From: a virus
Direction: 5' to 3' (one strand)
Length of the DNA stretch: 52,143 bases
Virus record (IMG/VR): IMGVR_UViG_3300042908_001490
Location: 1-52,143 of that record
The position numbers and the translations under genes were made by a program. The notes under the pieces were generated by a model. It had not been told where the DNA came from, did not search any database, and saw nothing but the letters and a program-made list of their open reading frames with translations. This document shows, in pieces, positions 8,423 to 32,160 of the stretch (position 1 is the first letter of the stretch; each line of letters begins with the position of its first letter).

Positions 8423-8596
8423 ATGGACGATTTAACCCAGAAACTTCAATCACTACTCGACGGTTTTGGTAACAGAGGCAATGCCAAGATTGAAAGACGA
8501 CACGACGGTTTTTATTATATAAGTCAAGCTATGTCTGCTCATTTAGATAGTGAGTACCATAGCGCGATCGCAATATTAAAGCAATTATTTATTTAG
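8423..8596 (+). CDS. small hypothetical protein (57 aa, below ORF-track cutoff)
   Basis: I translated MDDLTQKLQSLLDGFGNRGNAKIERRHDGFYYISQAMSAHLDSEYHSAIAILKQLFI. It fills the gap between the GNAT gene and dcd. Confidence 0.4.
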   Translation: MDDLTQKLQSLLDGFGNRGNAKIERRHDGFYYISQAMSAHLDSEYHSAIAILKQLFI

Positions 8597-8604
8597 GGGA
8601 AACT

Positions 8605-9592: not shown

Positions 9593-9650
9593 TTTTCTTT
9601 ACCAAATTTTTAACTTAGGATACCACTAATAAATTATTATAAATGCTAAA

Positions 9651-9887
9651 TTATTTTTTATTCTTGCTTCCTAAAATTCCCAATACATTAAGCCCCAATA
9701 AATAACTAACTAGAGATATTTCAGCGATCGCTAGAGCTTCGGGAATTTCCTCTATTTTAAAAGATTTTATCTGAGGAAGTTGATCTTTGGAAAAATCAAT
9801 CTCTACGCGGATAGACTGAATTACCATTAACCAAGTAATTATCAGCGCGAAAATATACCGATAGATTCTGCCAATCTGATTTTCCAT
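9651..9887 (-). CDS. small membrane protein
   Basis: 78 aa with two hydrophobic helices. It is the last gene of the leftward operon. Confidence 0.5.
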   Translation of the reverse strand: MENQIGRIYRYIFALIITWLMVIQSIRVEIDFSKDQLPQIKSFKIEEIPEALAIAEISLVSYLLGLNVLGILGSKNKK

Positions 9888-9972
9888 AATTAATAAAGAG
9901 CGATCGCCTGTGATCGCGATCGCCTAAAGCTAGGGTGCATCTATCATAAATAGATGCCCTGATTATAGCAAG

Positions 9973-10881: not shown

Positions 10882-11299
10882 TGAATTTAACTCCTAATTT
10901 TTCAATCATTTCATCTGACAAATATCTAAACCCTTGGGGTGGTAAAATTCCTGCTTCACGCATCATTGAAAGTGGAATTGGAGTGATTCTTTTGGGGTTT
11001 CTGATTCTAATCCCGTAACCCATGCGATCGCCTAAATAATCCCAAATTTCACGGGAATTTAAGCACAAGCTTGATTGGTAATTGTTGCAAAAAGTTTGAG
11101 CATCTTTGCAGAGAATTTCAACGGATTCACAATAGCCAACTATCTCTGCTGTTGGAGTAGTTTCATAAATTAAGATGCGATCAAAGGCTGGTTGGCAATT
11201 TTCTTCTCGGACACCTCGCTTTCTTAACTCAATTGTTTTCTTCCCTGAGAAAATGTTTTGGCTGTGACGCGGATGTAAGCTGATTAGCAATGTTTCCAT
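10874..11299 (-). CDS. ASCH (PUA-like) domain protein
   Basis: LISLHPRHSQNIFSGKKTIELRKR...ILIYE is an ASCH-like N-terminus. The gene overlaps the C5-MTase start by 8 nt. Confidence 0.7.
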   Translation of the reverse strand: METLLISLHPRHSQNIFSGKKTIELRKRGVREENCQPAFDRILIYETTPTAEIVGYCESVEILCKDAQTFCNNYQSSLCLNSREIWDYLGDRMGYGIRIRNPKRITPIPLSMMREAGILPPQGFRYLSDEMIEKLGVKFND

Positions 11300-11300
11300 T

Positions 11301-11909
11301 TTATCCTTCTTGATTTGGTAGTAATTGGTTATTTGCGATCGCTACTTTCAAAGCTTCCTCGACTTGTTCAAATTCACCACCAAAAGCGAAAAAATCTGAG
11401 GATATTAGACAATAGCGATCGCCTGTAATTTGCAAAATAATCTGGCTCAACGATGATTCTGTGATTTGGTGGTGAATGTGTTTATATTGCTCAAATAGTT
11501 CAAGCATGATTTTCTCCTGTTTAAAAAGTGGAAGTTGGATGGAATTAATTTCTCTGCTATGCTCTTTTTCCAGCGTGTCTACTGCATCTTTAAAAGATAA
11601 ATAAGTTAGTTCAGCCCATCCAGTTGAAGGGATGCTATTTTTATCCATCAAATCGCAGTAGTCGTCAAAAAGCGCGATCGCATCAAAAAGTGAAGTAGCC
11701 GCATCAAAAGCAAGTCTGTTCAGTTTTTCGTTAACACGCTTTTTAGTAGCAGTGTTTGCATCGTTCCACCAGATGCTGTTCCAGACTTTTTCGTAAGCGT
11801 CCGCATAGTCCACGAACAGGGTTAAATGCAATTTCATGGATGCCAATAATTCATGATTATTAGGGATTCTCTCAAGTAAAGTGTGAATCACGCATTTGGA
11901 GATTAACAT
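11301..11909 (-). CDS. hypothetical protein
   Basis: 202-aa helical ORF. It abuts the ASCH gene and the N6-MTase gene at both ends. Confidence 0.6.
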   Translation of the reverse strand: MLISKCVIHTLLERIPNNHELLASMKLHLTLFVDYADAYEKVWNSIWWNDANTATKKRVNEKLNRLAFDAATSLFDAIALFDDYCDLMDKNSIPSTGWAELTYLSFKDAVDTLEKEHSREINSIQLPLFKQEKIMLELFEQYKHIHHQITESSLSQIILQITGDRYCLISSDFFAFGGEFEQVEEALKVAIANNQLLPNQEG

Positions 11910-12661
11910 TAGTACAAAAATGTTGTTGATGGGTTTTCTTTGCCCAAACGAATGTCAAAAACAGCATCGTAGCATTGCCGTCCTGACATCAATTCTGGGA
12001 TATCTGTTTGGATGGCTTCTGTTACTTTTTCCCCGTTTACTATTTTGGCAACTTTACGAGTCTTGAACACAGGATTACCGTCTTTATCAACTTTTTGAGT
12101 TTTACTGCAAGGAACTCCATTAATTAGATAGTCAACACGCTTGGGGATGCGGTAAACATGATGGATATGTGCATCTAGTTGATTCCAAACTTTTGCTCTT
12201 GACTGGGCGCAGTTCCAATCCAATGGCATCAAGAATAATAATCTTGCTGTGGGATTATCGGGATTGAGTAATTTGAGTGAGTGCGCGATCGCCTCCATGC
12301 ACAAACTAAATGGTGGGTTGGTGATAATTAAATCGTAGCGAGTAAAATTCACAAGTTTGAAAAAATCACCATTAAAGTTAAAAGAATGATTCCTTAATTG
12401 ACGAAGTTGCAGTATGCGGCAATATTTTATTTCTGCAACAGTAATTATGCGATCGCTGGGCAGATATTTAACAATTTGTCCACTTCCTGCAAAGGGTTCA
12501 AGGATGTTTTTGTCTGTTGGTAATACTAAACTTGCGATCGCCTTAGCTTCTTTGTCAGGAGTCTCGTAATCGTCGTTAGTAAACTCTTCAACTGACTGAG
12601 ATAATGATAGTTGATTCATGCTATTTTGTCCAGTAGTTGTCTTCATTCTTCTTCCCTCCAT
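11909..12661 (-). CDS. N6-adenine (or N4-C) DNA methyltransferase
   Basis: Motif I is ILEPFAGSGQI and motif IV is DLIITNPPFS. Confidence 0.85.
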   Translation of the reverse strand: MEGRRMKTTTGQNSMNQLSLSQSVEEFTNDDYETPDKEAKAIASLVLPTDKNILEPFAGSGQIVKYLPSDRIITVAEIKYCRILQLRQLRNHSFNFNGDFFKLVNFTRYDLIITNPPFSLCMEAIAHSLKLLNPDNPTARLLFLMPLDWNCAQSRAKVWNQLDAHIHHVYRIPKRVDYLINGVPCSKTQKVDKDGNPVFKTRKVAKIVNGEKVTEAIQTDIPELMSGRQCYDAVFDIRLGKENPSTTFLY

Positions 12662-16544: not shown

Positions 16545-17693
16545 TTATGGAGTTAATTCAAAAAACACCCCTTTCCTGGTTGCAGGTCTAGGCGCGATCG
16601 CAATTTTTCCCTGCCCCTGAAGTTCTGCAAGGATTTTGCTGACTCCTATAGTGCATCTCCTGAGATTCCCTAGATGCTGAGAAATTTCTTGTTTATTCTT
16701 GGGTCCATCCTTGAGAAAGTTCAAAATCTTGTGTTGCGGTTGATTGTTGTTGAAGTCAAAAAATGCTTTTTCGTTAGTAGTAGACACAAACTTTTCTCCA
16801 TGCTCCTGATAATCGAAACAGGAAACAGCATCACCTCTGACTACCAAAAACCGTAGGCAATAACGTATGCTTGTCTTGCTTTTCTTGCCTTTGACCTTGC
16901 TATAGATTTCTGTAGCAGAAGTTATTTTATCGCTTGCATCTAAAATCGCTTTTACTTTTTCAATTGTTGGTAGGCGAGAAACGCAAACACCCCGATATTT
17001 CTCTAGAACTTCAGCATGAGAGTGATGAGCATAAATTCTATTTCTTTGTTTACCGACATAAACAATTTCCCCATCTTCTACCAACCTTGTTGTTGTTATC
17101 CAAGTTGAAGTCGGGAGCGATCGCAGAGCATAAATTCTATTTCTTTGTTTACCGACATAAACAATTTCCCCATCTTCTACCAACCTTGTTGTTGTTATCC
17201 AAGTTGAAGTCGGGAGCGATCGCAGCTTCCTAGCAATGTCTGATAATGAAAATCCTGCATTGTTTCTTTTTAGGAGATCAAGAATTTCCTTCTGTAATAA
17301 ACCGCTGCCAAATTCCCTGTATAACTTAATTTTTTTCTTGATTTCCTTGGGCTTATTTTTGATTTCTTTGGGTTTATTTTTGATTTCTTTGGGCTTATTC
17401 TTGATTTCTTTGGGTTTATTCTTGATTTCCTTGGGCTTATTTTTGATTTCTTTGGGTTTATTTTTGCGGACTCTAGGAGTTTTGAGTTTAGCTTGCTTAA
17501 CTGAAGATGGTTCAGTTTTTGGTTGCGATATGATAGTCAACCGTTGTTGATTTCTCAATGTTGTGACGCAATCCAAGCATAATATTTTAGACTCAGATTC
17601 GTGATTACAGCCTCGATATCTGTGGCAGCTTCCACATCTTCCAAAAGTTTTTTCTATTTGTTTGACTGTTATATGTTCGAGTGTTTGCAGCAT
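16545..17693 (-). CDS. zinc-ribbon / multi-winged-helix DNA-binding protein with internal repeats
   Basis: The N-terminus has CGSCHRYRGC...CLDC. The protein contains (KNKPKEI)x6, an exact 33-aa duplication, and several MarR-like wHTH segments. Confidence 0.7.
   Translation of the reverse strand: MLQTLEHITVKQIEKTFGRCGSCHRYRGCNHESESKILCLDCVTTLRNQQRLTIISQPKTEPSSVKQAKLKTPRVRKNKPKEIKNKPKEIKNKPKEIKNKPKEIKNKPKEIKNKPKEIKKKIKLYREFGSGLLQKEILDLLKRNNAGFSLSDIARKLRSLPTSTWITTTRLVEDGEIVYVGKQRNRIYALRSLPTSTWITTTRLVEDGEIVYVGKQRNRIYAHHSHAEVLEKYRGVCVSRLPTIEKVKAILDASDKITSATEIYSKVKGKKSKTSIRYCLRFLVVRGDAVSCFDYQEHGEKFVSTTNEKAFFDFNNNQPQHKILNFLKDGPKNKQEISQHLGNLRRCTIGVSKILAELQGQGKIAIAPRPATRKGVFFELTP
17029..17225. repeat. 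99-bp exact in-frame tandem duplication
   Basis: 17029-17127 is repeated at 17128-17225. The duplication encodes LRSLPTSTWITTTRLVEDGEIVYVGKQRNRIYA twice. Confidence 0.95.
17340..17465. repeat. 6 x 21-bp tandem repeat (KNKPKEI heptads)
   Basis: The units gatttc(c/t)ttggg(c/t)ttatt(t/c)tt differ only at three synonymous third-codon positions. Confidence 0.95.
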
Positions 17694-23091: not shown

Positions 23092-24009
23092 TTAGTATGG
23101 AGGATAACCAAATTCATCATCTTCTGGGTTTTGTCCTGCCGATTGAACAGCCGCATTAAACTCATTCGGATTGGGTTTGCCTTCATCTTCGGTAGCAGTT
23201 TCTTTTAGTGACGGTCTCCAATCCTTGACTAACTCTCTGCTGAGTTTTATTTGCTCACTCAACTCACTGCCGTTTGTCACAAGAGAAGACATGGTAGCTG
23301 GTTTATAGCTCTCAACAACAGCTACATTTGCTGTGTTAGGAGCTATGCCCCGCACGGCATCTGTTATTGTGGGTTCATAAATGCAATGAGCATGAAACAA
23401 GTCCCCCATCGGTTTATATGGCTGTTTCCTGCTTTGAGCGTAAGCTTTCTCCATGTCACAGCAAAAACCACCTCGATTTGTCTCTTTAGTTTGATGTTGA
23501 AGCCATGAAGCATTGAAAGATGCGCCACTTGCACCACCAAGGGATATCCTGATTGGCGCAGTGTGACAGGGTTTATTGTCTTGTCCTAAGACGTAGCAAT
23601 AACTCCAACTTGCTGTTTTGTAGAGATTTTTGTTCTTCCAAAAATCACTGAATTTTCTCATCTCGCCGATGAGTTCGTTTTTTTCTCTCATCTTCCCAGA
23701 CAAGAATCCTTCGTTCCTGCTTTTCAAGTAAACAGGGGTGCTAGAGAGGATTAATAGTCTTGGCTTTAAAGTCATTAGAACAATTTCTTTGTCGCCACTA
23801 GGCCACTCATGTTCTACTATTTCCCAATTTTCAGGGAGATCAAAGGAACATGATTCTGCATCTTTTTTAGTTATCGCAAATCCGTAAGGAAGAATACCAG
23901 TTCTTCCAAACCTGGGATTAATTATTAGAGCAATTGGCGGACGCTCAGAGACTGGTGCGGAAAATTGTTGATCTTCAAAATCAGGCGCTAATACTGCTGT
24001 GTTTGTCAT
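23092..24009 (-). CDS. hypothetical protein
   Basis: 305-aa ORF with no motif I can name. Confidence 0.65.
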   Translation of the reverse strand: MTNTAVLAPDFEDQQFSAPVSERPPIALIINPRFGRTGILPYGFAITKKDAESCSFDLPENWEIVEHEWPSGDKEIVLMTLKPRLLILSSTPVYLKSRNEGFLSGKMREKNELIGEMRKFSDFWKNKNLYKTASWSYCYVLGQDNKPCHTAPIRISLGGASGASFNASWLQHQTKETNRGGFCCDMEKAYAQSRKQPYKPMGDLFHAHCIYEPTITDAVRGIAPNTANVAVVESYKPATMSSLVTNGSELSEQIKLSRELVKDWRPSLKETATEDEGKPNPNEFNAAVQSAGQNPEDDEFGYPPY

Positions 24010-24182
24010 CGTTTTGTCTTGCTTGTTATTATTTTATCTGTGCGGAGTTGATAAGGCGATCGCACCCAGCCAATTGATAATAGTTAAAACTTGAATTTGT
24101 GGTAGCTAAAATAATTATGCTACCTTCTATTTTAGCAGTTGCGATCGCTCAAATATTTTAACTAAAGCGATCGCGGAAATTA

Positions 24183-24518
24183 CTAAACTGCTACGAGACA
24201 GGGAACTTTATCGCGCCCACTACCTCGTTCATCACATACCAAATCTTCTATGTATTGCTCAAATTCTGATCGAGCTTCACTAATTTGATACCCTTGCCAG
24301 TTGCAGTGACGTTCACACTGGGAATAAGTATGAGCGCGAAACACAATCCGATTATTGACCTTGACAGTATAGGGCTGGGTTAAGCTGCTGAAACTAACGT
24401 CTTCATACTCAACAACAGCTTCATTTGATTGCTCATGGAACAAATAATCATCTAGTTCAATTTCTTCTACTACCTTTACAGTCTGGGGTAGTTTGCGAGA
24501 ATAGACAGTGTGTGTCAT
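24183..24518 (-). CDS. hypothetical protein
   Basis: 111-aa ORF downstream of the RHH gene and the second palindrome copy. Confidence 0.6.
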   Translation of the reverse strand: MTHTVYSRKLPQTVKVVEEIELDDYLFHEQSNEAVVEYEDVSFSSLTQPYTVKVNNRIVFRAHTYSQCERHCNWQGYQISEARSEFEQYIEDLVCDERGSGRDKVPCLVAV

Positions 24519-24595
24519 GATTGATTAGACCTTTTAGGTTGTGGGGCGATCGCTTACTTCTTTGCCGGAGGGGCGATCGCTTTGCTTATACAATA

Positions 24596-24613
24596 ATTCT
24601 ATGTCCATAGAAT
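24596..24613. promoter_or_regulatory. palindromic operator, copy 1
   Basis: ATTCTATG-TC-CATAGAAT. The 18-mer ttctatgtccatagaata is identical to the one at 24837-24854. Confidence 0.6.
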
Positions 24614-24620
24614 AAATTTG

Positions 24621-24827
24621 TCAAGCTATTTTTGAAGATTTTTCTTTGTTCTCAATAAAAACAGCCAAACCCCTTGCTACAGAAGGAATACGAACTACTT
24701 GCTCTAGTAGCTCACTCAGCTTTAAATTAAGATTAGCAGCATATTCCTCATACAATGCGATCGCTGTAGGAGTGAGGTTAATGTGCTTAGAAACCTTCTT
24801 TTCACTATATTTCTGACTTCGTGCCAT
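24621..24827 (-). CDS. RHH-like regulator
   Basis: MARSQKYSEKKVSKHINLTPTAIALYEEYAANLNLKLSELLEQV read from the internal ATG. AAGGAG lies upstream. Confidence 0.6.
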   Translation of the reverse strand: MARSQKYSEKKVSKHINLTPTAIALYEEYAANLNLKLSELLEQVVRIPSVARGLAVFIENKEKSSKIA

Positions 24828-24836
24828 ATCTCTCCT

Positions 24837-24854
24837 TTCTATGTCCATAGAATA
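24837..24854. promoter_or_regulatory. palindromic operator, copy 2
   Basis: TTCTATG-TC-CATAGAA lies 10-27 nt upstream of the RHH start codon. Confidence 0.6.
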
Positions 24855-24930
24855 GAGAATATCACAAAAAATCCCCACTGCCTTCAGTCCAGCAGGGATT
24901 TTTGTAGTGGTAGTGCGATCGCTATGTCAC

Positions 24931-24964
24931 AAAAAAGCTTCCTGAAAACGGTGTTCCAGGAAGT
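24931..24964 (-). terminator. intrinsic terminator
   Basis: The minus strand reads ACTTCCTG-GAACACCGTTTT-CAGGAAG followed by CTTTTTTG. It begins 5 nt after the stop at 24969. Confidence 0.7.
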
Positions 24965-24968
24965 TCGG

Positions 24969-25148
24969 TTATTCTTGCTTTGCAGCGATCGCTATATCGT
25001 TAGTTCGAGCTTTTTCTAGTAATTCAGCGATCGCTATTGTTTGATCAAGAGATATCCCATGTTGCTCGCTCAATCGCTTGAGATGCTTGATAGTTGTGTC
25101 AACATCATCTACGGTTACACGCCCATACTGTTTATACGCTGATTCCAT
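24969..25148 (-). CDS. small hypothetical protein (59 aa, below ORF-track cutoff)
   Basis: MESAYKQYGRVTVDDVDTTIKHLKRLSEQHGISLDQTIAIAELLEKARTNDIAIAAKQE. Its ATG is 2 nt after the ATPase stop. Confidence 0.5.
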   Translation of the reverse strand: MESAYKQYGRVTVDDVDTTIKHLKRLSEQHGISLDQTIAIAELLEKARTNDIAIAAKQE

Positions 25149-25150
25149 AA

Positions 25151-27097
25151 TTATTCTCCCTGCTCAATAAATAAACAACTAATTCTCTCGTCCTGCGACA
25201 CCATTGATGCTGTCGTTCTCGCTTGTGCTTGATCACCGTCGTTACTTGGTAAAAAACCTATAGCAAGCAATTTATATTCGTTACCAATACCGTACAGGTG
25301 CAATTGTCCAGCCGCTTGGTAAATTGTATCTCTGGTTAAATATTTTTTAACCTCAACAATAGTACCACCATCAAAATCAGTGGCAATATCAATGAAACCG
25401 CCATTACTTTTAACTTCTGTTTGTACCTTGTAGCCGTGTTTAGTGAGTCGAGATGCGATCGCTTTCTGCAAATCTTCCTCTCTCCACTTTTCGGGCAACT
25501 CCAAATTAGCGGTAATCATTGCCCAAGTGATAACTTCATCAGTTAGTTCAAGATTGTTTTTCAACAGCATTAAAGCATCGGCAGTTAAAGATATTCCAGT
25601 GACTTGTTGCCACGCTTGAACTAACTCAGAATCGGTGGGGTTTCTGCCTAATTTGTCTATCCATGAGCCTATAACATGATAAGGATTTATGTCTTCTTTC
25701 TGCTCCGATTGCGCCGCATCCTGTGGTTTTTCAGTTTGCTCCAAATCATCAATATTGAAAACAGGAATTAGAGCAATATAAGGATTACCTTTAGTGGGAA
25801 TTACTAAAGCGTATCTCACACCCTGCTTATCAAGTAGTTCACAAACTTCTTTCAATAAGTCAAGAATATCACCTTTAACATTAAGAAAATCGGATGGATT
25901 GCTTAATATGTAACTTGATACTTTGCCCAGTGCAATAAAGCAAATATTCTTGTAACTGGGACGACTAAAACCTGTGCATCCACTTAACGGATTTTGCCCC
26001 ATAAATACGCCATGAACTTTCATTGCGGCTGTAAAGTTGATAACGTAATTCCACATCCCTTGAAGATTTACAGCCGTTTCTTTTGTGACTTGTTTCTTAC
26101 CCGTTCCTGGTAGTCCTTTGCCGCCACCATAAACGACATTTACCTCATCCTGAATTAAGAATATTTCTGATAGACCCGCACCTTTCCGATTGTGTTCAAA
26201 TTCTTGTTGCCTCTCATCAATAATCTTAGTGGCAAACTTAATCCATTCTGGCAATGATTCCAGACCTTCAAACTTTTTGGAAAACTTACATAACCAACGA
26301 GTAACAAAGTTTTTGGGATCTGAACCAATCACATAAGCAGCACCTTGTGATTGAGCCGCAATCTTATTAATAATCACCCCTGCCAACGTTGATTTACCTG
26401 ACTGAGTTTCACCCCATAATCCAAAGTGGTGGTTAGCTCTGTTCCCCATATCCTGAACTGCCGAACTATCGCACAATTCATCAATCCAATTATTATCAAT
26501 CCTGATGTATTCAGGATATTCTGTAGCTAATTCTTGCAGCACAGCCATCACGCCAGGGTTAATGATTTCTTGGACTGCATCCTCATTAAAAGTTGCAACT
26601 TCAGGATTGGGAATACCGCGAGAACTGGGGAGTTGCTTTGGTTCGATTACAGCTTGTTGAACTTGTGGGATTTCTACTAATCCATGTAACCTGTATTCTT
26701 CCATCCATCGTTGACGTTCGTGCGGTGGCAATGAATTGATTCGGGCTGCTAAATCCCTCTTGGCTTCAATTTTCCGCATAGAGAGTTCATAATTAAGAGT
26801 CTCTCTAAGCCCCTCCTTTACTATCTGATAATTAGCTTCATCAATACTCTGATAAGTTTTTTCTTTGCGTTGGCGGCGGAAACATTCTGCTGTAAAACAA
26901 GTCGCAAAAGACAGCCCCGCTATGTTTTCAATTAGCTTTACTTCCTTGATTTGATTTGGCCACAAAATAGGTAAAACTGTACCAACTGCGGCTGCAATTC
27001 CGAGCGCTCCCAACAATATGCGCTCGGATGTTATCAAGGGTTCAAAACAGTTTTTTTGATGTGCAAACGGGTTGGTTGATTGCATCATGTCATCCAC
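25151..27097 (-). CDS. membrane-anchored FtsK/HerA-type P-loop ATPase with C-terminal PD-(D/E)xK-like domain
   Basis: There are two N-terminal TM helices. Walker A is GETQSGKST and Walker B is IFLIQDEVN. The C-terminus reads GGFIDIATDFDGGTIVEVKKY, a D...ExK pattern. Confidence 0.75.
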   Translation of the reverse strand: MDDMMQSTNPFAHQKNCFEPLITSERILLGALGIAAAVGTVLPILWPNQIKEVKLIENIAGLSFATCFTAECFRRQRKEKTYQSIDEANYQIVKEGLRETLNYELSMRKIEAKRDLAARINSLPPHERQRWMEEYRLHGLVEIPQVQQAVIEPKQLPSSRGIPNPEVATFNEDAVQEIINPGVMAVLQELATEYPEYIRIDNNWIDELCDSSAVQDMGNRANHHFGLWGETQSGKSTLAGVIINKIAAQSQGAAYVIGSDPKNFVTRWLCKFSKKFEGLESLPEWIKFATKIIDERQQEFEHNRKGAGLSEIFLIQDEVNVVYGGGKGLPGTGKKQVTKETAVNLQGMWNYVINFTAAMKVHGVFMGQNPLSGCTGFSRPSYKNICFIALGKVSSYILSNPSDFLNVKGDILDLLKEVCELLDKQGVRYALVIPTKGNPYIALIPVFNIDDLEQTEKPQDAAQSEQKEDINPYHVIGSWIDKLGRNPTDSELVQAWQQVTGISLTADALMLLKNNLELTDEVITWAMITANLELPEKWREEDLQKAIASRLTKHGYKVQTEVKSNGGFIDIATDFDGGTIVEVKKYLTRDTIYQAAGQLHLYGIGNEYKLLAIGFLPSNDGDQAQARTTASMVSQDERISCLFIEQGE

Positions 27098-27392
27098 CTA
27101 TTGTGATTCCAATAATTAGCGCGACTGTAGCCGCAGTTCCAAAAACATAGGTTGGGGCAAATCCTACAATTGATTGATTTTTATTCAGATGCCCGGCGGA
27201 CTTGTACCACAGCCCACACCAATTATAAAAACCAAGCCCGACAAATATCAAAATTGAGAACAAGTATAAGGCGATCGCGCCATTCTTGGATTCAGGGAAT
27301 CCCCGAATAATTTGCCCCAACAAAAGGAAGAACGATGCGCCAGTTAAGAAGTATCCAAAATAGAGTAAATTTTTCATTTTCGCATTTCCCAT
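27090..27392 (-). CDS. membrane protein (3 TM)
   Basis: 100 aa with three hydrophobic helices. It overlaps the ATPase start by 8 nt. Confidence 0.6.
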   Translation of the reverse strand: MGNAKMKNLLYFGYFLTGASFFLLLGQIIRGFPESKNGAIALYLFSILIFVGLGFYNWCGLWYKSAGHLNKNQSIVGFAPTYVFGTAATVALIIGITIGG

Positions 27393-27469
27393 TGAAGATA
27401 CAAGATCATGCCTAAAAATAATGCAACTAATAGAATGATAATTATACCCTTTGCATCTGGAACTATCAT
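27374..27469 (-). CDS. micro membrane peptide (31 aa)
   Basis: MIVPDAKGIIIILLVALFLGMILYLQWEMRK. It fills the gap between two genes. Support is weak. Confidence 0.3.
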   Translation of the reverse strand: MIVPDAKGIIIILLVALFLGMILYLQWEMRK

Positions 27470-27470
27470 T

Positions 27471-27953
27471 TTAATCTCCCTGTTTGCTTGCTATATAGAA
27501 AACATTTGCACAACCAAAAGCTACCTCTGATCCCAACACAAATACACCGCACAACACTTTAAGAAACAATAACTTGGGATTGCCAAGTTGAATAAGATTG
27601 ACTTGATAATCAAACCAAAAAGTGTAAGCAGAAATCAGCAAAAAAGCACCTATTCCCAAGAAAGATACTATATCTACAACCTGCTTAACCTCTTTGTCTG
27701 ACTTCGGTTTTTCAAGAATTTTTATCAATACTCTAGGGTCAAATAACACCGTAATAGTTGCGCTTTCAACTCCTAAAATCAGAGCTATTGATACACAAGT
27801 TGCAAAAGTTTTTTGCCACTGATCAACGCCTTTCATTAAATTCCAAAAATACGGAAATAAGGTGAATCCGTTGTAGAAAAATATAGCCCAACCTACTTTA
27901 TTAAAAATTGAGCTAAGACTACCATCTGCTTCAGCATTTCTTTTAAAAAACAT
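27471..27953 (-). CDS. membrane protein (4 TM)
   Basis: 160 aa with four hydrophobic helices. It has a TAATG overlap with the upstream gene. Confidence 0.65.
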   Translation of the reverse strand: MFFKRNAEADGSLSSIFNKVGWAIFFYNGFTLFPYFWNLMKGVDQWQKTFATCVSIALILGVESATITVLFDPRVLIKILEKPKSDKEVKQVVDIVSFLGIGAFLLISAYTFWFDYQVNLIQLGNPKLLFLKVLCGVFVLGSEVAFGCANVFYIASKQGD

Positions 27954-28384
27954 TAGCTAAATATCTCCGCACCTACTTGATAAGCTTCTGTAAAACCGTC
28001 TACATAAGCCTGGGTTGTGGCCGCGCCTAACATATATTGAGCAACTGTTTGATTATGCCCAGATTCAATTTCTCGCAACTTCTGATCTGCTTTCATTGTC
28101 ACAGCAGCCCATCTAGTGTTTTTAGCGTGTAAATCTACCGCCTTGCCAAGTAGTTTTTCTTGTGTAGAAATAATGTCATCGGCTAGTTGCAATTCTGCGT
28201 CAACCTGTCCCATTTCACGCTCCAAATTAACTACTTGCTGTGCTGATATTTCAGTGGGTAATTTCATCTTGGCTTTCACTCTAGCCATTGAATTACCCAT
28301 GTTGCCGATAGCAGTTGGATTTTGCCCACTACCTGCTAATTTACCGGACTTGTCCGCAACTAATCCCCCGAAGAAATTCTCCAT
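27953..28384 (-). CDS. hypothetical protein
   Basis: 143-aa helical ORF. Confidence 0.6.
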   Translation of the reverse strand: MENFFGGLVADKSGKLAGSGQNPTAIGNMGNSMARVKAKMKLPTEISAQQVVNLEREMGQVDAELQLADDIISTQEKLLGKAVDLHAKNTRWAAVTMKADQKLREIESGHNQTVAQYMLGAATTQAYVDGFTEAYQVGAEIFS

Positions 28385-28742
28385 TATTCGCCACGCTCCC
28401 CTGCGTTTGTTGGTTTTTATTGAATGAAAGAAAAAGACATAAAAGACTGACTAAAATTGATGAAGCTAAAACGCAGAGAGTCATCATATCAACGTTTTTA
28501 GCTTGCTTTAGTATTTCCAATTCCTGTTTTCTGCTTGCGGCTCGATTATAGTCAGTAGTTGTTATTATCTGTCTGATTACGTTGTCATCAGCAACGCCCT
28601 CAAAATTAAATTCTCCACTTGGCTTGACACTAACTTTTATCGGCTTTGGTTGCTCACCAATCGGTTTGGCGGTAAACTGTATCGGGTTGGGCTGGGTAAT
28701 TGTCTCCTCCTCCCATATGTCGGGGAGGTCTGGAAATAGCAT
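28341..28742 (-). CDS. hypothetical protein with C-terminal TM helix
   Basis: The ATG at 28742 lies 2 codons inside the TTG-initiated track ORF. The TM helix reads MMTLCVLASSILVSLLCLFLSF. Confidence 0.5.
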   Translation of the reverse strand: MLFPDLPDIWEEETITQPNPIQFTAKPIGEQPKPIKVSVKPSGEFNFEGVADDNVIRQIITTTDYNRAASRKQELEILKQAKNVDMMTLCVLASSILVSLLCLFLSFNKNQQTQGSVANNGEFLRGISCGQVR

Positions 28743-28807
28743 AAACAAAAGCTCCTGTAAATAGAAAAGAAAGAATTAACACAGTGGGAATCATCCAGTT
28801 CGACGGT

Positions 28808-29350
28808 CTAATTATTGACGATATCTGCAAAAGCCTCATCGAAGATTGATCCAATTTGTCCACGAAAAGACGCGGATTCATCGGCGTACTCCTGAAGTCC
28901 TGCGGAAACTTTGGAAACAATGTTTGGACTGATTTGTTTGTAGCGATTCACGATTCTTGCTGCGGCTGCATTCTCAACTTCAGTTGATTTTCTATCTGAT
29001 ATTTCGTACATTGCATCAGATTCGTTTGCAACTGTAGCCCTGAGATTTTGAACAGCAACTTTCAGGTTTTCAATACCTTGATTGCTGGTGGTTGTCGCTG
29101 GGGTATTTTTCTTGTTTTTCTTCGCTTTAGGTTCTTCGTTTGTTGCCAGTTGTCCGTTATTCTCAACAGTAGTCAAACCAAAACCAGCATTTTCTTTATC
29201 AATTTCATCTGCTACAAACTGGGCGTTGGCATCATCTAAAGCAGCGGGGTCAATGTCGTATTGAGCGCAGATAGTTTGGGTTTTCTCCCAAACTTGCTCT
29301 ACGGACATTTCTGTTTTCATGAAACTTTTGACTAAATCTGCAACTGTCAT
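28808..29350 (-). CDS. hypothetical protein
   Basis: 180-aa ORF with an acidic N-terminus and a Lys-rich linker. Confidence 0.6.
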   Translation of the reverse strand: MTVADLVKSFMKTEMSVEQVWEKTQTICAQYDIDPAALDDANAQFVADEIDKENAGFGLTTVENNGQLATNEEPKAKKNKKNTPATTTSNQGIENLKVAVQNLRATVANESDAMYEISDRKSTEVENAAAARIVNRYKQISPNIVSKVSAGLQEYADESASFRGQIGSIFDEAFADIVNN

Positions 29351-29502
29351 TATTTAACTCCCAATAATAATTTTTTGATTTCCTTTCTAACGGCGGCGGT
29401 AAAAGCGAGTAGTCCGGGTTTTGTCGTCCATTCACTGTAGCTTCCGTCTGGTTCGTGTCGTCTAATAGTGAGAATAATTTCAGTTTCACTGTTTTGCTGC
29501 AT
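29350..29502 (-). CDS. small hypothetical protein (50 aa)
   Basis: MQQNSETEIILTIRRHEPDGSYSEWTTKPGLLAFTAAVRKEIKKLLLGVK. GAGGT lies upstream, and there is a TAATG overlap with the next gene. Confidence 0.5.
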   Translation of the reverse strand: MQQNSETEIILTIRRHEPDGSYSEWTTKPGLLAFTAAVRKEIKKLLLGVK

Positions 29503-29614
29503 TAACTACCTCAGCTTTTGTGGCGTGAATGTTATTCGCTGTTATTAATGAAAGTGGTGGAATTGCAAACAATAATAAGACAACGATTGCGGCTTCTAGT
29601 TTTGACTTAAACAT
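29486..29614 (-). CDS. small membrane/secreted peptide (42 aa)
   Basis: MFKSKLEAAIVVLLLFAIPPLSLITANNIHATKAEVVNAAKQ. AAGGAG lies 6 nt upstream of the ATG. Confidence 0.5.
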   Translation of the reverse strand: MFKSKLEAAIVVLLLFAIPPLSLITANNIHATKAEVVNAAKQ

Positions 29615-29882
29615 TGCTATCTCCTTGGTTAATTTTCTCTAGTTCCAGTTGAATCATTTTCGCTTTGCCTCTAAAATTTCTGTATTTTACGACAAGCGAT
29701 CGCACCAACTTTAATTGTTCAATTTGCTGATCAGTTTCAACTGGCATCCCAGTCAATTTGCCTGTTTCTGAATTCATAAAACCGGAAAAAACATTCAAAT
29801 GCTGGGATGCCAATTTTAAATATCGCTGGAGTTGCCTTTCCCCTACACCAATCTTTTCCGCAACATCCTTCCTATTAGCCAT
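29607..29882 (-). CDS. HTH protein
   Basis: MANRKDVAEKIGVGERQLQRYLK read from the internal ATG at 29882. The N-terminal KVKI part of the track ORF is an alternate frame of the 12-bp repeat. Confidence 0.6.
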   Translation of the reverse strand: MANRKDVAEKIGVGERQLQRYLKLASQHLNVFSGFMNSETGKLTGMPVETDQQIEQLKLVRSLVVKYRNFRGKAKMIQLELEKINQGDSNV

Positions 29883-30183
29883 TTTCCTGATCTTGACTTT
29901 GATCTTGACTTTGATCTTGACTTTGATCTTGACTTTGATTCCACGCTTTCCAAACCTGTCTTTGCCCCCTTTCTGTTCTTTCTCCGAACAAATCATTGTT
30001 GATTGTTACGGCTGCTTGTCTCGCTGTTTCAGGTGAAACTCCTTTGCGTTCCAGCATTTCTTGAAAACGCTTTATTCTTGTCTTTTCCACTGATGTCTGC
30101 CTTATGTCTGGTATGTACCCAATATAAAGCCACCCTTTTGAGGTGGCTATAGGTTTCTGTGATTTCGCAGAATTTATAATCAC
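29875..30183 (-). CDS. hypothetical protein with (QSQD)4 tail
   Basis: 102 aa with a GTG start that overlaps the upstream stop (GTGA). Confidence 0.55.
   Translation of the reverse strand: MIINSAKSQKPIATSKGWLYIGYIPDIRQTSVEKTRIKRFQEMLERKGVSPETARQAAVTINNDLFGERTERGQRQVWKAWNQSQDQSQDQSQDQSQDQENG
29889..29936. repeat. 4 x 12-bp tandem repeat gatcttgacttt
   Basis: Exact units start at 29889, 29901, 29913 and 29925. Each unit carries a GATC. Confidence 0.95.
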
Positions 30184-30398
30184 TTAGAGAGAACAGCGAT
30201 CGCCCAGCTTGGGAAATTATCTTTATAGAACCATGTTTCGATAGTTTGTCTTTTGGGTGGCTTACCCTCAGTCCCCTCGAAAAAAGTAGATATTTTTCTA
30301 ACGGCATCATTAATACACATTTTTTTATAGCCGTGGTCGCCCATTAATAATCCTTGGGCTTTTGGGAGTTTGTCCGCGATCGCTTGCATCCGTGCCAT
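30180..30398 (-). CDS. hypothetical protein, first gene of the operon
   Basis: 72-aa ORF from the ORF track. Confidence 0.55.
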   Translation of the reverse strand: MARMQAIADKLPKAQGLLMGDHGYKKMCINDAVRKISTFFEGTEGKPPKRQTIETWFYKDNFPSWAIAVLSK

Positions 30399-30519
30399 AA
30401 TTTTAATTACTCCTAGCAGGTAATAGCTGTTTGGGGTGAATATCCCCCAATCCGACGCAACCGGAGAGGGGGATTATTTTTTCAGTGTACATCATTTCCG
30501 CTAAATTCGTGCTAACTTG

Positions 30520-30918
30520 ATGGGACAATCTACAAATAATTTTATGGTGGAACGCAAAAAACCGCAGACAAAGCAAGAGCTAGAAGCCGATTCAGTCAAT
30601 CACCCAGAACGGGGTAAAGTTGACGGAAAACCAGTTGTAAGCGATGCACCCCGCGAACTTAGAGGGTGTGTACCAGCCGAACTCAAAAGAAAATTCCTCA
30701 GAGTTATTGCCTGTTATGGGCTTGATAATTCTGCTGGGGTGCAACAAGCGCTCACACTCTATTGGAACGAAAACAGAGAAGCGGTAGAATCTCACGAACG
30801 GCAAAAGTCTGAAGAATTGGGAATTTCTGTTGCAGAAGTTCAGAAAAAAAGTTATGGACATTCCAAAGCTCGGAGTAGGCAGAAAAAATTAAATTTAATG
30901 GGTGGTGACAATGAGTAA
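30520..30918 (+). CDS. RHH-like (CopG/ParG-type) protein
   Basis: LRGCVPAELKRKFLRVIACYGLDNSAGVQQALTLYW. The ATG is at 30520. Confidence 0.55.
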   Translation: MGQSTNNFMVERKKPQTKQELEADSVNHPERGKVDGKPVVSDAPRELRGCVPAELKRKFLRVIACYGLDNSAGVQQALTLYWNENREAVESHERQKSEELGISVAEVQKKSYGHSKARSRQKKLNLMGGDNE

Positions 30919-31426
30919 AATTCTATTTTTGGACTTAGATGGTACTGTCCGCAAAAGTAAATCTGGCGCAACTTTCATCAATGACCCCTATGACCAAGAA
31001 TTGATTGATGGGGTGGAAGATGCGATCGCCCGTTATCACGATTACAAAATAATCGGAGTCACAAATCAGGGTGGCGTAATCGCTGGGTATAAATCACTAG
31101 AGAATTGCTTTGAGGAGCAACGTCAAACCCTGAAACTGTTACCCCAAATGAGTTTGTTGTTATTTTGCACGGATAACGGTGATACCATGTTTCGACTCTC
31201 ACAAAGAGCATTAGAAATGCACGGTATGCCGATTATGACTAATCGTTCTAATCATTTTGGCAACTTCAGAAAACCCAACTCAGGAATGATTGTTTTTGGT
31301 ATGAAATATTCCAGGGAAAAGCTGGAGGAAATTTTAATGGTGGGAGATAGATCCGAAGATCAAGAATGTGCTGCTAATGCGAATATTCCATTTATGTGGG
31401 CGGAGGACTGGAGAAATGGTAAATAA
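30911..31426 (+). CDS. HAD-IIIA phosphatase (GmhB / polynucleotide 3'-phosphatase-like)
   Basis: The motifs are FLDLDGTV, VTNQGGV, FRKPNSGM and MVGDRSEDQ. Confidence 0.8.
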   Translation: MSKILFLDLDGTVRKSKSGATFINDPYDQELIDGVEDAIARYHDYKIIGVTNQGGVIAGYKSLENCFEEQRQTLKLLPQMSLLLFCTDNGDTMFRLSQRALEMHGMPIMTNRSNHFGNFRKPNSGMIVFGMKYSREKLEEILMVGDRSEDQECAANANIPFMWAEDWRNGK

Positions 31427-31655
31427 TTCAAATTGGAAATCAACTATTTGCACGGTATTAGAGCATCTACGATCAAATGATGCAAATGATATCCCTAATC
31501 CTGAGTTCATCAGAATTTTTAAAGGGATGAAATCAATCAGCCATTCAAATTTAGTCAATGAGCATATTGACGAGGTAATAGTGGCGATCGCTGATGACTC
31601 CTATTCCGACAAACTTCTACTGGATTTAATTGAATACGTGAGGGATTATGACTAG
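31416..31655 (+). CDS. hypothetical protein
   Basis: The internal ATG at 31416 overlaps the HAD gene stop. Confidence 0.5.
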   Translation: MVNNSNWKSTICTVLEHLRSNDANDIPNPEFIRIFKGMKSISHSNLVNEHIDEVIVAIADDSYSDKLLLDLIEYVRDYD

Positions 31656-32160
31656 CCAACCTGAAGGATATCCCCAAAGATGGGTGTGGGCTGCTTGCGC
31701 TCACATCTACGGCGACCCGATAAGCGATCGCACTTGGAGAAAGTACAAGGATATATGCCAAGTCCCTGATTTTCGCAAGCTCAAGAAAGGGGAAGAGCCG
31801 ATTATTAGTAAAACCCATTGCCAATGGCTAATGACGTTGGCTTATATCCGGTTTGAGCAAAAGCGGGAAAACGGGACTAAAAGACCAATGGGATGCAAAA
31901 CTGGTGTGACCATCCAACAAATTATCAAACGGTTAAACTCAAGTCCTGTTTTAAAAACTGAACTTGATAAGGCATTAGGTGATGCTGTAATTATTGATGG
32001 CATTAAAGGTTCGGAAGTACCCACATGGTTGAGTCGTCAAATCGGCAAGTCTCCAACAATTAAAACTCTCAGACGTTGGGCAAAAAAGCACAATCTGAAG
32101 TTCTCAACTCATCTGCCTGTTCCGGTAGAAACGTTAGATACATTTTTGCGAATAGCGTGA
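31648..32160 (+). CDS. hypothetical protein
   Basis: 170-aa ORF overlapping the upstream gene by 8 nt. Confidence 0.55.
   Translation: MTSQPEGYPQRWVWAACAHIYGDPISDRTWRKYKDICQVPDFRKLKKGEEPIISKTHCQWLMTLAYIRFEQKRENGTKRPMGCKTGVTIQQIIKRLNSSPVLKTELDKALGDAVIIDGIKGSEVPTWLSRQIGKSPTIKTLRRWAKKHNLKFSTHLPVPVETLDTFLRIA

Follow-up and report, generated by a model that had tools for sequence, protein, structure and literature searches.

Six genes, A to F, together with a nuclease form a conserved and previously unstudied six-to-seven-gene cassette that is present in almost all sequenced phage lineages, and in many plasmids, of filamentous cyanobacteria. We describe it from a 52,143-nucleotide stretch of viral DNA (IMG/VR record IMGVR_UViG_3300042908_001490, hereafter the window), in which it makes up only part of a minus-strand operon. 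No profile library names any of its components. The products appear, with reasonable probability, to constitute a cytoplasmic-membrane machine that translocates DNA, and the purpose that we tentatively favor is cell-to-cell DNA transfer resembling that of TraB and the Spd proteins.

The replicon is a tailed siphophage related to Aphanizomenon phage vB_AphaS-CL131 (CL131), and neither a plasmid nor a membrane-containing virus: terminase (TerL included), portal and tape measure proteins are encoded, and the operon region is syntenic with CL131 gp108-gp118. Large Nostoc plasmids nevertheless carry the cassette as well. All 14 predicted ORFs and their overlapping junctions are present, running in one direction on the minus strand and including a single FtsK/HerA-class ATPase. 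The overlaps are of 4 nt at 30180-30183, 8 nt at 29875-29882, 29607-29614 and 27090-27097, and 1 nt (TAATG) at 29350 and 27953, to which can be added 17 nt at 29486-29502, 44 nt at 28341-28384 and 19 nt at 27374-27392. The operon closes with the strong intrinsic terminator anticipated there (minus strand, 24938-24963), consisting of a 10-bp stem, a 6-nt loop and a T-run. The promoter placed in 30399-30519 was not recovered, a consensus scan finding no sigma-70-like site on the minus strand of that interval.

Within the operon A-F are a conserved unit, and the remainder are not. The five leader ORFs (minus strand, 29350-30398) encode products of 72 aa (30180-30398), 102 aa (29875-30183), 91 aa (29607-29882), 42 aa with one transmembrane (TM) helix (29486-29614) and 50 aa (29350-29502); they are lineage-specific, being restricted to CL131-like phages and not found in the plasmid, N1, Lbo402-yong5 or other loci. 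The 91-aa protein has an N-terminal HTH-like segment, with a weak MerR_1 match at residues 5-23. A 59-aa ORF between the ATPase gene and the terminator (minus strand, 24969-25148) lies outside the conserved module and is unique to the window, with no counterpart in CL131 or any related locus. CL131 keeps every ORF except this one and the first leader ORF, which other CL131-like contigs have, and its conservation of the micro-ORFs indicates that these are real.

The small proteins of the cassette are encoded on the minus strand upstream of the ATPase, with TM helices predicted here by Kyte-Doolittle. A (28808-29350; 180 aa), the first gene of the conserved core, encodes a soluble protein whose N-terminal domain is small and helical, whose middle is basic and of low complexity (KKNKKNTPATT) and whose C-terminus is helical and acidic; the family was found in 43 loci by iterative HMM searches, is also present in phage Lbo402-yong5 and contig L065, and has no match in Pfam, PHROG or PDB. 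B (28654-28881, within an ORF at 28654-28920) is a single-TM protein of about 75 aa that overlaps the 3′ end of A and the 5′ end of C, out of frame with both, and occupies the apparent 59-nt gap between them. It starts at an ATG at 28881 with AGGAG 8 nt upstream, and has an SSIIRPSNWM motif, the TM helix and then YAISRPPR. This overlapping peptide, which had been suggested only as a possibility, is 46-98% identical in its own frame across CL131-like contigs in which the flanking genes are only 36-55% identical; its family spans 42 loci, and one-TM positional equivalents are present in L064, L065 and phage N1.

C (28341-28748; 133-135 aa) is tail-anchored, with one TM helix near the C-terminus (residues 91-109) and an N-terminal soluble domain in which a conserved hairpin motif, VKPSGEFNFEG, is followed by a helix. 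Its HMM matches CL131-like loci, L007, L049, Lbo402-yong5 (E 9e-11) and N1 (E 2e-9), and the plasmid loci have a positional analogue (cluster 11). D (27953-28384; 143 aa), which shares the 44-nt overlap with C, is better conserved than any other small protein of the cassette (46 loci; 71 database proteins, all named sources being Nostocales). Its N-terminus is Gly-rich and disordered, and a single helix of 76 residues (48-123 in AF2 model m1d5338592d28, pLDDT 71) is probably a coiled coil; there is no PDB sequence match. The next two genes are accessory: X (27471-27953; 160 aa, 3-4 TM helices), specific to the CL131 lineage and present in nine CL131-like loci, and a 31-aa single-TM peptide (27374-27469) that co-varies with it, is 77-100% identical in relatives and is unannotated in CL131. 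Contigs L052 and L058 have no X yet retain A-F. E (27090-27392; 100 aa, 2-3 TM helices) overlaps the ATPase start by 8 nt, and in all loci examined a protein of 91-107 aa with 2-3 TM helices lies immediately upstream of the ATPase. Homology of E to the ATPase N-terminus was considered and rejected (hhalign probability only 0.4%).

F (minus strand, 25151-27097; 648 aa) is the membrane-anchored FtsK/HerA-class ATPase and, as predicted, the only recognizable enzyme. Of the two N-terminal TM helices expected (TM1, 26963-27019; TM2, 26882-26938), one is strong and one weaker; they are followed by a coiled coil (26696-26881), the motor (25733-26557), a three-helix putative DNA-binding domain (25553-25684) and a PD-(D/E)XK nuclease domain (25154-25495; D570, E583-x-K585). 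The motor contains the predicted Walker A GETQSGKST (residues 229-237; 26387-26413), Walker B LIQDEV (residues 314-319; 26141-26158) and a GQNP motif (25979-26002), all invariant in 44 homologues. An AF2 model (ma3cee3d17b48, pLDDT 78.6) has an N-in two-TM anchor with the motor facing the cytoplasm, and its best Foldseek matches against PDB are TcpA (6o1w, E 4e-5), FtsK (6t8g/2ius), EccC (4n1a) and HerA. The Pfam DUF87 match (20.6 bits) falls under the 23.2 cutoff, and distant members of the family give only sub-threshold FtsK_SpoIIIE and Pox_A32 matches. For the three-helix domain, no similarity to FtsK-gamma or to a solved HTH could be detected, a point against our favored reading.

Two features beyond the original prediction are the nuclease domain of F and an HNH nuclease partner in its relatives. 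The isolated C-terminus of F matches PDDEXK_9 (E 2e-4) with the catalytic D...ExK intact, and its nearest Pfam models are restriction-type (PDDEXK_9, MTES_1575 and Mrr_cat). This fusion is found in the CL131 clade; where it is missing, an HNH nuclease gene, G, usually lies 3′ of F and often overlaps its stop codon. G occurs in 38 loci, with an invariant CxxC..HH..CxxCH, and is missing wherever the fusion is present; its profile matches HNH domains in PDB (E 2e-5), and in one record, Lbo402-yong5, it is annotated NinG (NinG/Rap-like). The ATPase core, like the nuclease type, is swapped between loci.

Among phages, the gene set is carried by CL131-like members, by the A-1(L)/N1 cluster in its entirety, by Leptolyngbya phage Lbo402-yong5 and by several uncultured phages; outside phages, it is found on large Nostoc plasmids and on one chromosome. 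The order in which A-E accompany F is the same in no fewer than seven phage backbones that are otherwise unrelated, and also in one plasmid family and the chromosome (the window, CL131, L049, L006/L048, L007, L064, L065, N1, the plasmids and the chromosome); L066 retains F and G, preceded by small membrane ORFs that are divergent, A-D not being detectable. Among CL131-like contigs covering the region the cassette is in nine of nine, a tenth (L059) having only the end of F, and it is in all seven N1/A-1(L) records. It moves as a unit between phages and plasmids that share almost no other genes. The family is tiny, with 213 matches among 1.84 billion representative proteins. When 50,697 phage records were searched with five divergent F queries, by tblastn of limited sensitivity, the matches were only to Aphanizomenon, Dolichospermum, Anabaena/Nostoc and Leptolyngbya phages and no phage of a unicellular host. 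Named cellular sources of cassette proteins are all Nostocales, and named hosts are filamentous cyanobacteria without exception.

An FtsK/HerA-class motor beside numerous small TM proteins could also belong to a PRD1-like virion internal-membrane/packaging module, a holin/lysis cassette or a type VII-like protein secretion system, and packaging ATPases of this class and EccC are among the fold matches. The internal-membrane module had been raised in the original prediction and is unsupported: the element has the TerL, portal and tape measure of a tailed phage, and CL131 ORF108, ORF110, ORF111 and ORF113 do not appear in the searched part of the virion mass-spectrometry table. There is no holin, endolysin or WXG100 family match, and F has a single ATPase domain with DNA-directed domains, unlike EccC/EssC. 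We regard this group of explanations as largely refuted. That F is a coupling protein feeding a canonical type IV secretion system encoded on a plasmid or by the host is also highly improbable. The best structural match is the coupling protein TcpA, Lbo402-yong5 F is annotated 'DNA translocase coupling protein', and MOB-suite classes nine of 19 F-carrying plasmids as conjugative (MPF_T); the other ten, however, are typed as non-mobilizable, F is always accompanied by A-E and not by type IV secretion genes, and the phages have no VirB4, relaxase or VirB6/8. F has no Pfam match to the VirD4 or VirB4 families even in distant relatives, and pilin and peptidoglycan hydrolase, as the original prediction had it, are undetected.

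At the heart of the proposed machine would be a hexameric FtsK-type pump handling double-stranded DNA at the cytoplasmic membrane. B, C, E and the F anchor would form the membrane part, joined in the CL131 lineage by X and the 31-aa peptide, and D and A would bridge to DNA. The nuclease may generate or process a DNA end, and F would pump the duplex. The tentative purpose would be for the element to export its own DNA into the adjacent filament cell, by which phage or plasmid could spread with no extracellular step. Such intercellular spread would explain why the core gene set is in phages of filamentous hosts and was not found in those of unicellular hosts. The conjugative coupling protein TcpA, among the top PDB matches with FtsK and EccC, is in keeping with transfer. 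The layout also agrees point by point, as the original prediction proposed, with that of TraB and the Spd proteins, which drive intramycelial plasmid spread: small poorly conserved membrane proteins, overlapping stop and start codons, and an adjoining FtsK-like motor (PMC4447253). DNA donation by the Thermus HerA-like pump TdtA requires co-encoded nucleases (PMC5365140). A preprint on N1-cluster phages reports 'potential cell-to-cell spread' in Anabaena filaments, but emphasizes differing infection outcomes in adjacent cells, which counts against transfer (10.64898/2026.02.14.705889). Moreover, CL131 is virulent in the laboratory with a normal terminase and virion pathway (PMC6293099), and a second route of spread is therefore not required. 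Also against transfer, no clt-like array of short direct repeats was found near F, host restriction may reflect only a gene pool held in common, and exchange of nuclease types and ATPase cores is a mark of conflict systems more than of transfer systems. Septal nanopores are not known to let DNA through.

The main rival, a real though rather doubtful possibility, is superinfection exclusion or inter-element defense, protecting the infected cell or plasmid host from competing phages by a membrane complex at the entry site of foreign DNA. There F would take hold of the incoming duplex, which the nuclease, attached or separate, would destroy. A motor with a nuclease is standard defense-system logic, and the restriction-type Pfam models, the exchange of HNH for PD-(D/E)XK and of ATPase cores, the movement of the cassette as a unit, and AIPR and toxin-antitoxin genes within about 10 kb of plasmid copies all fit. 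However, PADLOC models match no component, the cassette is core to whole phage lineages and not sporadic, and the family is tiny and confined to filamentous-cyanobacterial hosts, whereas defense systems are usually widespread. To our knowledge, a role in defense has been demonstrated for no FtsK-like protein that is anchored in the membrane.

The cassette always lies among replication or recombination genes (DnaB, DnaD and Pol III beta in the window and CL131; RecT in L065; ERF in L066), and parAB is about 11 kb away in pNPUN02. These neighbors and the NinG annotation of G would suit replicon segregation or resolution at the membrane or division septum with FtsK-XerCD-like logic, F pumping replicated DNA while a structure-specific nuclease (HNH or PD-(D/E)XK resolvase) resolves junctions or concatemers. 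We consider this unlikely: the five dedicated small membrane/coiled-coil proteins and the filamentous-host restriction are left unexplained, and virulent phages have no need of segregation at host septa. More unlikely still is assisted genome entry, similar to T5 second-step transfer or the phi29 pull step, in which an early membrane motor pulls in the rest of a long genome and the nuclease acts on host DNA. Lying behind a divergent regulatory region, the module has an orientation and position that fit early or middle expression, the motor is on the cytoplasmic side, and genomes of 49-113 kb must pass a thick cyanobacterial envelope; but in the deposited genomes of CL131 and Lbo402-yong5 the module is not close to either end, it is lacking in phages whose unicellular cyanobacterial hosts have similar envelopes, and plasmid and chromosomal copies are hard to account for.

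A conserved neighbor of the module, encoded on the plus strand at 31648-32160, is a putative HTH protein of 170 aa, a homologue of CL131 gp121 and a candidate regulator. Present in 27 loci (cluster 12), it has a homologue in Nostoc contig L022 (E 4e-21) and a weak excisionase-type HTH match, and in L006, L064 and L065 its gene immediately precedes A.

Within the minus-strand operon at 24969-30398 lies a cassette of six or seven genes that is both conserved and mobile, centred on a membrane-anchored FtsK/HerA-class motor that is coupled to a nuclease. The only record matched by the window in megablast searches is Aphanizomenon phage vB_AphaS-CL131 (CL131), patchwise and at 82-86% identity. CL131 is a tailed siphophage of 112.8 kb with genes for TerS, TerL, portal and tape measure proteins, and the operon region is syntenic with CL131 gp108-gp118. 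Genes flanking the operon encode a terminase, a DnaB helicase, a DnaD-like protein and the Pol III beta clamp, as well as Bro-N/Rha regulators together with a polynucleotide kinase/phosphatase. Because of the CL131 match, the synteny and the flanking genes, we conclude that the replicon is a tailed cyanophage, neither a plasmid nor an internal-membrane virus; the replicon type and the internal-membrane-virus alternative proposed in the original prediction were wrong, as the window is a relative of CL131. The same tailed-phage identity speaks against a packaging module of the PRD1/PM2 type. Roles in a virion membrane, in lysis or in type VII secretion are less likely readings of the cassette: for a holin/endolysin cassette, no Pfam or PHROG lysis family was matched and the operon is without a hydrolase, and for type VII secretion (EccC/EssC), the operon's 648-aa ATPase has a single ATPase domain and no WXG100 or Ess family was matched. 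ORF107-118 are hypothetical proteins in the CL131 paper (PMC6293099), and in the searched part of one supplementary file ORF108, 110, 111 and 113 turn up in the annotation, promoter and metagenome tables but not in the virion mass-spectrometry table, as far as it was covered (PMC6293099).

The operon had been correctly spotted, and that observation is confirmed. All of the ORFs and junction overlaps originally listed are present, together with three further overlaps; the proposed transmembrane (TM) helices are backed by hydropathy, the ATPase has both Walker A and Walker B motifs, and the strong terminator is a 10-bp hairpin followed by a T-run at 24963-24938 (minus strand). A consensus scan of 30399-30519 found no sigma-70-like promoter on the minus strand. 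The small ORFs are conserved, in that all ORFs but the first and last are kept in CL131, including a 31-aa peptide that is unannotated there. The original prediction lacked the most informative features, namely the link to a nuclease, the actual limits of the module and how widely it is distributed.

Gene order was compared by all-against-all clustering and iterative HMMs among 10 CL131-like viral contigs, about 40 Nostocales genome contigs and the loci of distant ATPase homologues. The order A-B-C-D-E-F recurs across loci, and this conserved unit (25151-29350 in the window) is smaller than the operon. It comprises a soluble protein A (~165-230 aa across loci), the peptide B, a tail-anchored protein C (~100-135 aa), a probable coiled-coil protein D (~145 aa), a protein E with 2-3 TM helices (~91-107 aa) and the ATPase F; families A, B and D are represented at 43, 42 and 46 loci, respectively. 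B is a peptide with one TM helix whose frame differs from those of A and C and spans their junction, with an ATG at 28881 and AGGAG 8 nt upstream, giving a 75-aa product. The overlapping peptide that had been suggested as a possible 46-aa product is real: its frame is 46-98% identical across relatives in which identity of the A and C proteins is no more than 36-55%. For D, the prediction is a Gly-rich disordered N-terminus followed by one 76-residue helix. Outside the conserved unit, the five upstream ORFs (29350-30398) are confined to CL131-like phages, a 160-aa 4-TM protein and the 31-aa peptide are absent from two CL131-like contigs that retain A-F, and a 59-aa ORF 3' of the ATPase gene is seen in this window alone.

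Searches that included Pfam, PHROGs and, with A and D profiles, the PDB gave no family or solved structure for any of A-E; the ten larger operon proteins had nothing over threshold in Pfam, NCBIfam, PHROGs or PADLOC, and the cassette components of Leptolyngbya phage Lbo402-yong5 had no match in PHROGs. An iterative HMM drifted from E to F, but E was rejected as a paralogue of the F membrane anchor at an hhalign probability of 0.4%. A putative helix-turn-helix (HTH) protein of 170 aa (31648-32160, plus strand) is a conserved neighbour and lies directly upstream of A in three other lineages. In Nostoc plasmids a gene for a 23S_rRNA_IVP/bAvd-like four-helix bundle (E 7e-37) is inserted at the D/E junction (12178-12543 in both loci L060 and L061; 1617-1982 in locus L062). 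Near the 5' end of the operon, a perfect 12-nt tandem repeat TGATCTTGACTT (4.3 copies, 29888-29939) lies at the 3' end of a 102-aa ORF, where it encodes (QSQD)n; in the long version of the following ORF, which overlaps, it reads as (KVKI)n. Length variation may occur at this repeat.

The window has 126 copies of the HIP1 sequence (GCGATCGC), or 2.4 per kb, and the A-F core has two copies against about 11 expected (P 0.001). The core is also depleted in CL131 (P range for both 0.001-0.006), and HIP1-poor cores were mapped at 25151-29350 of the window and 8011-12208 of locus L001. Depletion is missing in 11 other cassette loci and was rejected as a general cassette property; it suggests that this phage lineage acquired the cassette relatively recently or from a source of different composition.

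A search of plasmids and viromes for co-occurrence, as originally proposed, showed the gene set to recur in phages, plasmids and one chromosome. Phage carriers are CL131 with its uncultured relatives, Leptolyngbya phage Lbo402-yong5, the seven records that make up the N1/A-1(L) cluster (N1, A1, A-1(L), Elbi, YongM, YongM2 and Dfl-JY23), and the contigs L006 and L048 (a Baseplate_J/Tail_P2_I-type group), L007 (DNA polymerase B and tail tube), L065 (RecT-encoding), L066 (ERF/Portal_Mu) and L049. Large plasmids of Nostoc or Halotia, at least 15 in number and with pNPUN01 and pNPUN02 of N. punctiforme among them, carry the cassette as well, often on several plasmids of one strain, and so does one Nodularia plasmid. 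Beyond A-F, the only genes common to phage and plasmids encode a DUF5895 protein and a cluster-12 HTH protein; having almost nothing else in common, they point to a cassette that moves as a unit. The DUF5895 protein of the window (305 aa, E 4e-27) is encoded at 23092-24009, 1 kb downstream of the operon, and in the Nodularia plasmid the DUF5895 gene is ~5 kb upstream of the cassette. The chromosomal copy, in Chlorogloeopsis PCC 6912, adjoins apparent preQ0-synthesis genes: QueE-, QueD-, FolE- and QueC-like genes, recognized by eye in translated ORFs at 10212-12426 of locus L037, are apparently 3' of the cassette. Such a set would make up a pathway to 7-deazaguanine (preQ0), as is typical when phages modify their DNA, and its presence at the Chlorogloeopsis copy suggests a prophage or island.

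When five divergent F sequences were used as queries against 50,697 phage records, matches were confined to phages of filamentous cyanobacteria, and all of the named cellular sources are Nostocales. The clusters of distant F family members list metagenome proteins only, and the Lbo402-yong5 F as query matched 14 proteins. Because the cassette is core to whole phage lineages and is found only with filamentous hosts, the purpose that we tentatively favour is that it might export the element's DNA into the adjacent cell of the filament. A preprint on phages of the N1 cluster mentions possible spread from cell to cell and also stresses unequal outcomes in adjacent cells (10.64898/2026.02.14.705889).

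The F family is small, with 116 homologues in a set of 5.8 billion proteins and 213 proteins at E <= 0.001 in a profile search of 1.84 billion representatives. An AlphaFold model (44 sequences, pLDDT 78.6) has two N-terminal helices across the membrane region and a long helix to residue 121, then a disordered linker, a RecA-like motor (residues 181-455), a three-helix domain (472-515) and an alpha/beta domain (540-648). The Walker A (RANHHFGLWGETQSGKST, residues 220-237) and Walker B (LIQDEV, 314-319) motifs are invariant in 44 homologues and have the form that defines the FtsK-HerA superfamily (Walker A GxxGxGKS/T after an H-containing strand; Walker B hhhhDE). Foldseek searches of the PDB with the model returned TcpA (E 4e-5), FtsK (1.8e-4), EccC (2e-4) and HerA (4e-4), all at probability 1.0 and with target-normalised TM-scores of just 0.4-0.5; among BFVD viral models, matches were to CL131 gp108 (525 aa) and a Nodularia phage protein, then to FtsK-like and A32-type packaging ATPases. 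As modelled, the motor fold is closest to those of FtsK, TcpA, EccC or HerA, within the FtsK-HerA superfamily.

In Pfam, F has no PF01580 match, and DUF87 scores 20.6 bits, under the 23.2 cutoff; distant relatives have sub-threshold FtsK_SpoIIIE and Pox_A32 matches (16-21 bits against a cutoff of 24 for PF01580) and no match to VirD4/VirB4 families. Searches of PDB sequences with F alone and with profiles of F, of D, of A and of the three-helix domain were without a meaningful match. The conserved three-helix domain, a candidate for the winged-helix (gamma) domain with which FtsK, SpoIIIE and TraB read a short DNA motif, has an invariant W and P, its own profile had no PDB sequence match, and one relative has a weak HNH_repeat match there. 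One class of F relatives retains the N-terminal anchor and C-terminal domains around a different P-loop core. These variants (homologous proteins P0051, P0061 and P0074; 2811-4652 of the CL131-like contig L058; 4624-6201 of contig L067) keep the membrane/coiled-coil region and the three-helix domain, with the nuclease present or absent, and PHROG 38189 corresponds to one of them; their sequences indicate module swapping inside one gene.

The last 115 residues of F have the conserved D...ExK of a PD-(D/E)XK nuclease domain, and the predicted secondary structure fits the alpha-beta-beta-beta-alpha-beta core. A PDDEXK_9 match to this region (E 2e-4, 21.6 bits) is under the 25.5 cutoff, and the segments GGFIDIA and IVEVKK are kept in all fused F forms and in a stand-alone Lbo402-yong5 protein. 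From its motifs and predicted fold, the domain is assigned to the PD-(D/E)XK superfamily. Downstream of unfused F genes there is usually an ORF rich in Cys and His, called G, that in many cases overlaps the F stop codon; G is present at 38 loci and missing from the window and CL131. Its CxxC, HH and CxxCH residues are invariant, and it has no match in Pfam; in the PDB, the G profile has the Cas5-HNH Cascade HNH domain as a match (E 2e-5) and, more weakly, that of IscB (0.09), and G can be classed by motif (CxxC...HH...N...CxxCH...H) as an HNH endonuclease. Lbo402-yong5 has both downstream of F, a G annotated as NinG and the stand-alone PD-(D/E)XK protein with the same motif. A nuclease is an integral partner of F, and we infer for the cassette a role in handling dsDNA at the cytoplasmic membrane.

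The main rival to export is superinfection exclusion or defence, which has in its favour the restriction-like nuclease matches and the swapping of nuclease and motor modules. We rate it only slightly below export; against it are the cassette's core-gene status, its narrow distribution and the lack of a PADLOC match (in PADLOC-DB 2.0 the best was mad8 at E 2.6e-4, to the P-loop only, with none else under 0.007). Were it an exclusion system, it would be the first defence based on a membrane-anchored FtsK-type pump. Assisted genome entry is less likely.

Annotators had noticed the ATPase similarity, as is evident from GenBank labels on F members: 'DNA translocase FTSK' for the N1-type proteins of A-1(L) (OR360731.1) and Nostoc phage YongM (MT426122.1), and 'DNA translocase coupling protein' for the Leptolyngbya-type member in Lbo402-yong5. 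The N1-type F protein appears in one table without analysis (PMC11356776), and neither that paper nor the CL131 paper (PMC11356776, PMC6293099) analyses the accessory proteins, nuclease link, plasmid copies or function. In the literature we found neither the cassette nor its membrane partners described, and likewise nothing on the nuclease link or the plasmid copies; searches by old locus tags gave no papers on expression of the copies in N. punctiforme. The cassette probably represents a previously undescribed form of FtsK-type membrane DNA-translocation system.

By analogy, the architecture parallels the TraB+Spd modules of Streptomyces plasmids such as pSVH1 and pIJ101, in which plasmid DNA is passed across the cross-walls of hyphae by the FtsK-like TraB with the help of small proteins that form pores or oligomers (PMC4447253). 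Both have an FtsK-like ATPase with an N-terminal membrane/oligomerisation region and a C-terminal domain for DNA recognition, which in F is only a candidate (the three-helix domain), in an operon with 3-7 small, poorly conserved, mostly membrane or coiled-coil proteins and overlapping stop/start codons (PMC4447253); a divergent regulator is nearby, and the hosts are multicellular filamentous bacteria. The comparison drawn in the original prediction is reasonable by architecture (FtsK-like motor, small membrane proteins, overlapping stop/start codons), but a clt array was not found: no array of 8-bp direct repeats lies in 24000-31000, where repeats are HIP1-centred or a coding 12-mer. No clt- or KOPS-like motif emerged: the lone strand-skewed 8-mer, GTTGGTGG, proved to belong to a coding tandem repeat at 49.4 kb. 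The small membrane or oligomeric proteins with overlapping stop/start codons are a TraB/Spd trait by analogy only, Spd proteins having no conserved sequence (PMC4447253). The F cassette has no sequence similarity to any Spd and no clt-like repeat array, and F is under the Pfam FtsK_SpoIIIE threshold. It has an integral nuclease, whereas TraB moves unprocessed DNA, and its carriers are mostly tailed cyanophages, some of them virulent, whereas Spd carriers are actinomycete plasmids.

TcpA has two N-terminal TM helices, like F, and is encoded on a mobile element beside the small membrane proteins TcpD and TcpE. Among structures, TcpA of C. perfringens pCW3 (PDB 6o1w-6o1z) matches the F motor best, with 17% identity over ~290 aligned columns, although it is without a nuclease or the C-terminal three-helix domain. 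The Tcp locus also has VirB4-like TcpF, VirB6-like TcpH, the hydrolase TcpG and the relaxase TcpM, which are without counterparts in the cassette, and a T4SS coupling role is less likely; neither Pfam searches of ~30 window proteins nor the CL131 annotation revealed a VirB4-class ATPase, relaxase or VirB6/VirB8-like protein. FtsK/SpoIIIE with XerCD-dif combines a septum-anchored dsDNA pump, a C-terminal sequence-reading domain and a coupled DNA-cutting/rejoining enzyme, features with candidate counterparts in the F cassette. However, these are chromosomal housekeeping proteins with four TM helices and a long linker, the partner is a tyrosine recombinase rather than HNH or PD-(D/E)XK, and F is far under the family thresholds; septal segregation or resolution is also a less likely role.

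The motor-nuclease pairing itself parallels, again by analogy, the TdtA-NurA-Tth111II 'transjugation' operon of Thermus thermophilus ICEth1 (PMC5365140), in which a membrane-associated hexameric FtsK/HerA-class pump is encoded by a mobile element and the co-encoded nucleases are required for efficient DNA donation (PMC5365140). TdtA differs in being HerA-like without TM helices, with NurA and a type IIG restriction enzyme as the nucleases, and its operon lacks small membrane-protein partners, uptake relying on recipient competence machinery.

Returning to export into the adjacent cell, a more specific and unlikely form of this reading is a viral 'movement' system, in which an FtsK-type pump encoded by phage and plasmid, its own membrane channel proteins and an end-making nuclease would pass replicated DNA straight from an infected cell into the neighbouring filament cell. 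If true, bacteria would have their counterpart to the way plant viruses move through plasmodesmata, and cyanobacteria an independent equivalent of plasmid spreading in Streptomyces. Phages of bloom-forming and nitrogen-fixing filamentous cyanobacteria are poorly understood, and the cassette is among the few gene sets common to their otherwise unrelated lineages and to large Nostoc plasmids. If DNA does move between cells, views of how infections proceed, of burst sizes as estimated and of how plasmids are inherited in multicellular bacteria would have to be revised, and the cassette would be a second, independently evolved case of FtsK-driven intercellular DNA spread. Direct tests are feasible, since N1, A-1(L) and Elbi carry the cassette and their host, Anabaena/Nostoc PCC 7120, is genetically tractable.

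Several other features of the window were recorded. A tandem repeat at 49391-49834 (30/45/90-nt, ~15 copies, unit AGTTGGTGGAGTG...) contains the 8-mer GTTGGTGG 32 times on one strand and twice on the other, accounting for a GC-skew spike at 48-50 kb; it lies inside overlapping ORFs at 49376-50083 (minus) and 49401-49847 (plus), and its minus strand would encode a Thr/Pro-rich repeat. At 17027-17225 and 17331-17466 there are a perfect 99-nt duplication and ~6 copies of a 21-nt unit, within or antisense to a 382-aa ORF (16545-17693) near the DnaB helicase gene; these repeats are iteron-like and could mark a replication origin. An 18-nt near-palindrome, TTCTATGTCCATAGAATA, has two perfect copies at 24597-24614 and 24837-24854, one just downstream of and one inside the 5' end of an 85-aa ORF (24621-24878) with 98% identity to CL131 gp104. 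One copy overlaps a promoter-like site (11/12 match), and the two look like a candidate operator pair. A single tRNA-Ser gene (anticodon TGA) at 38034-38107 matches the tRNA-Ser annotated in CL131.
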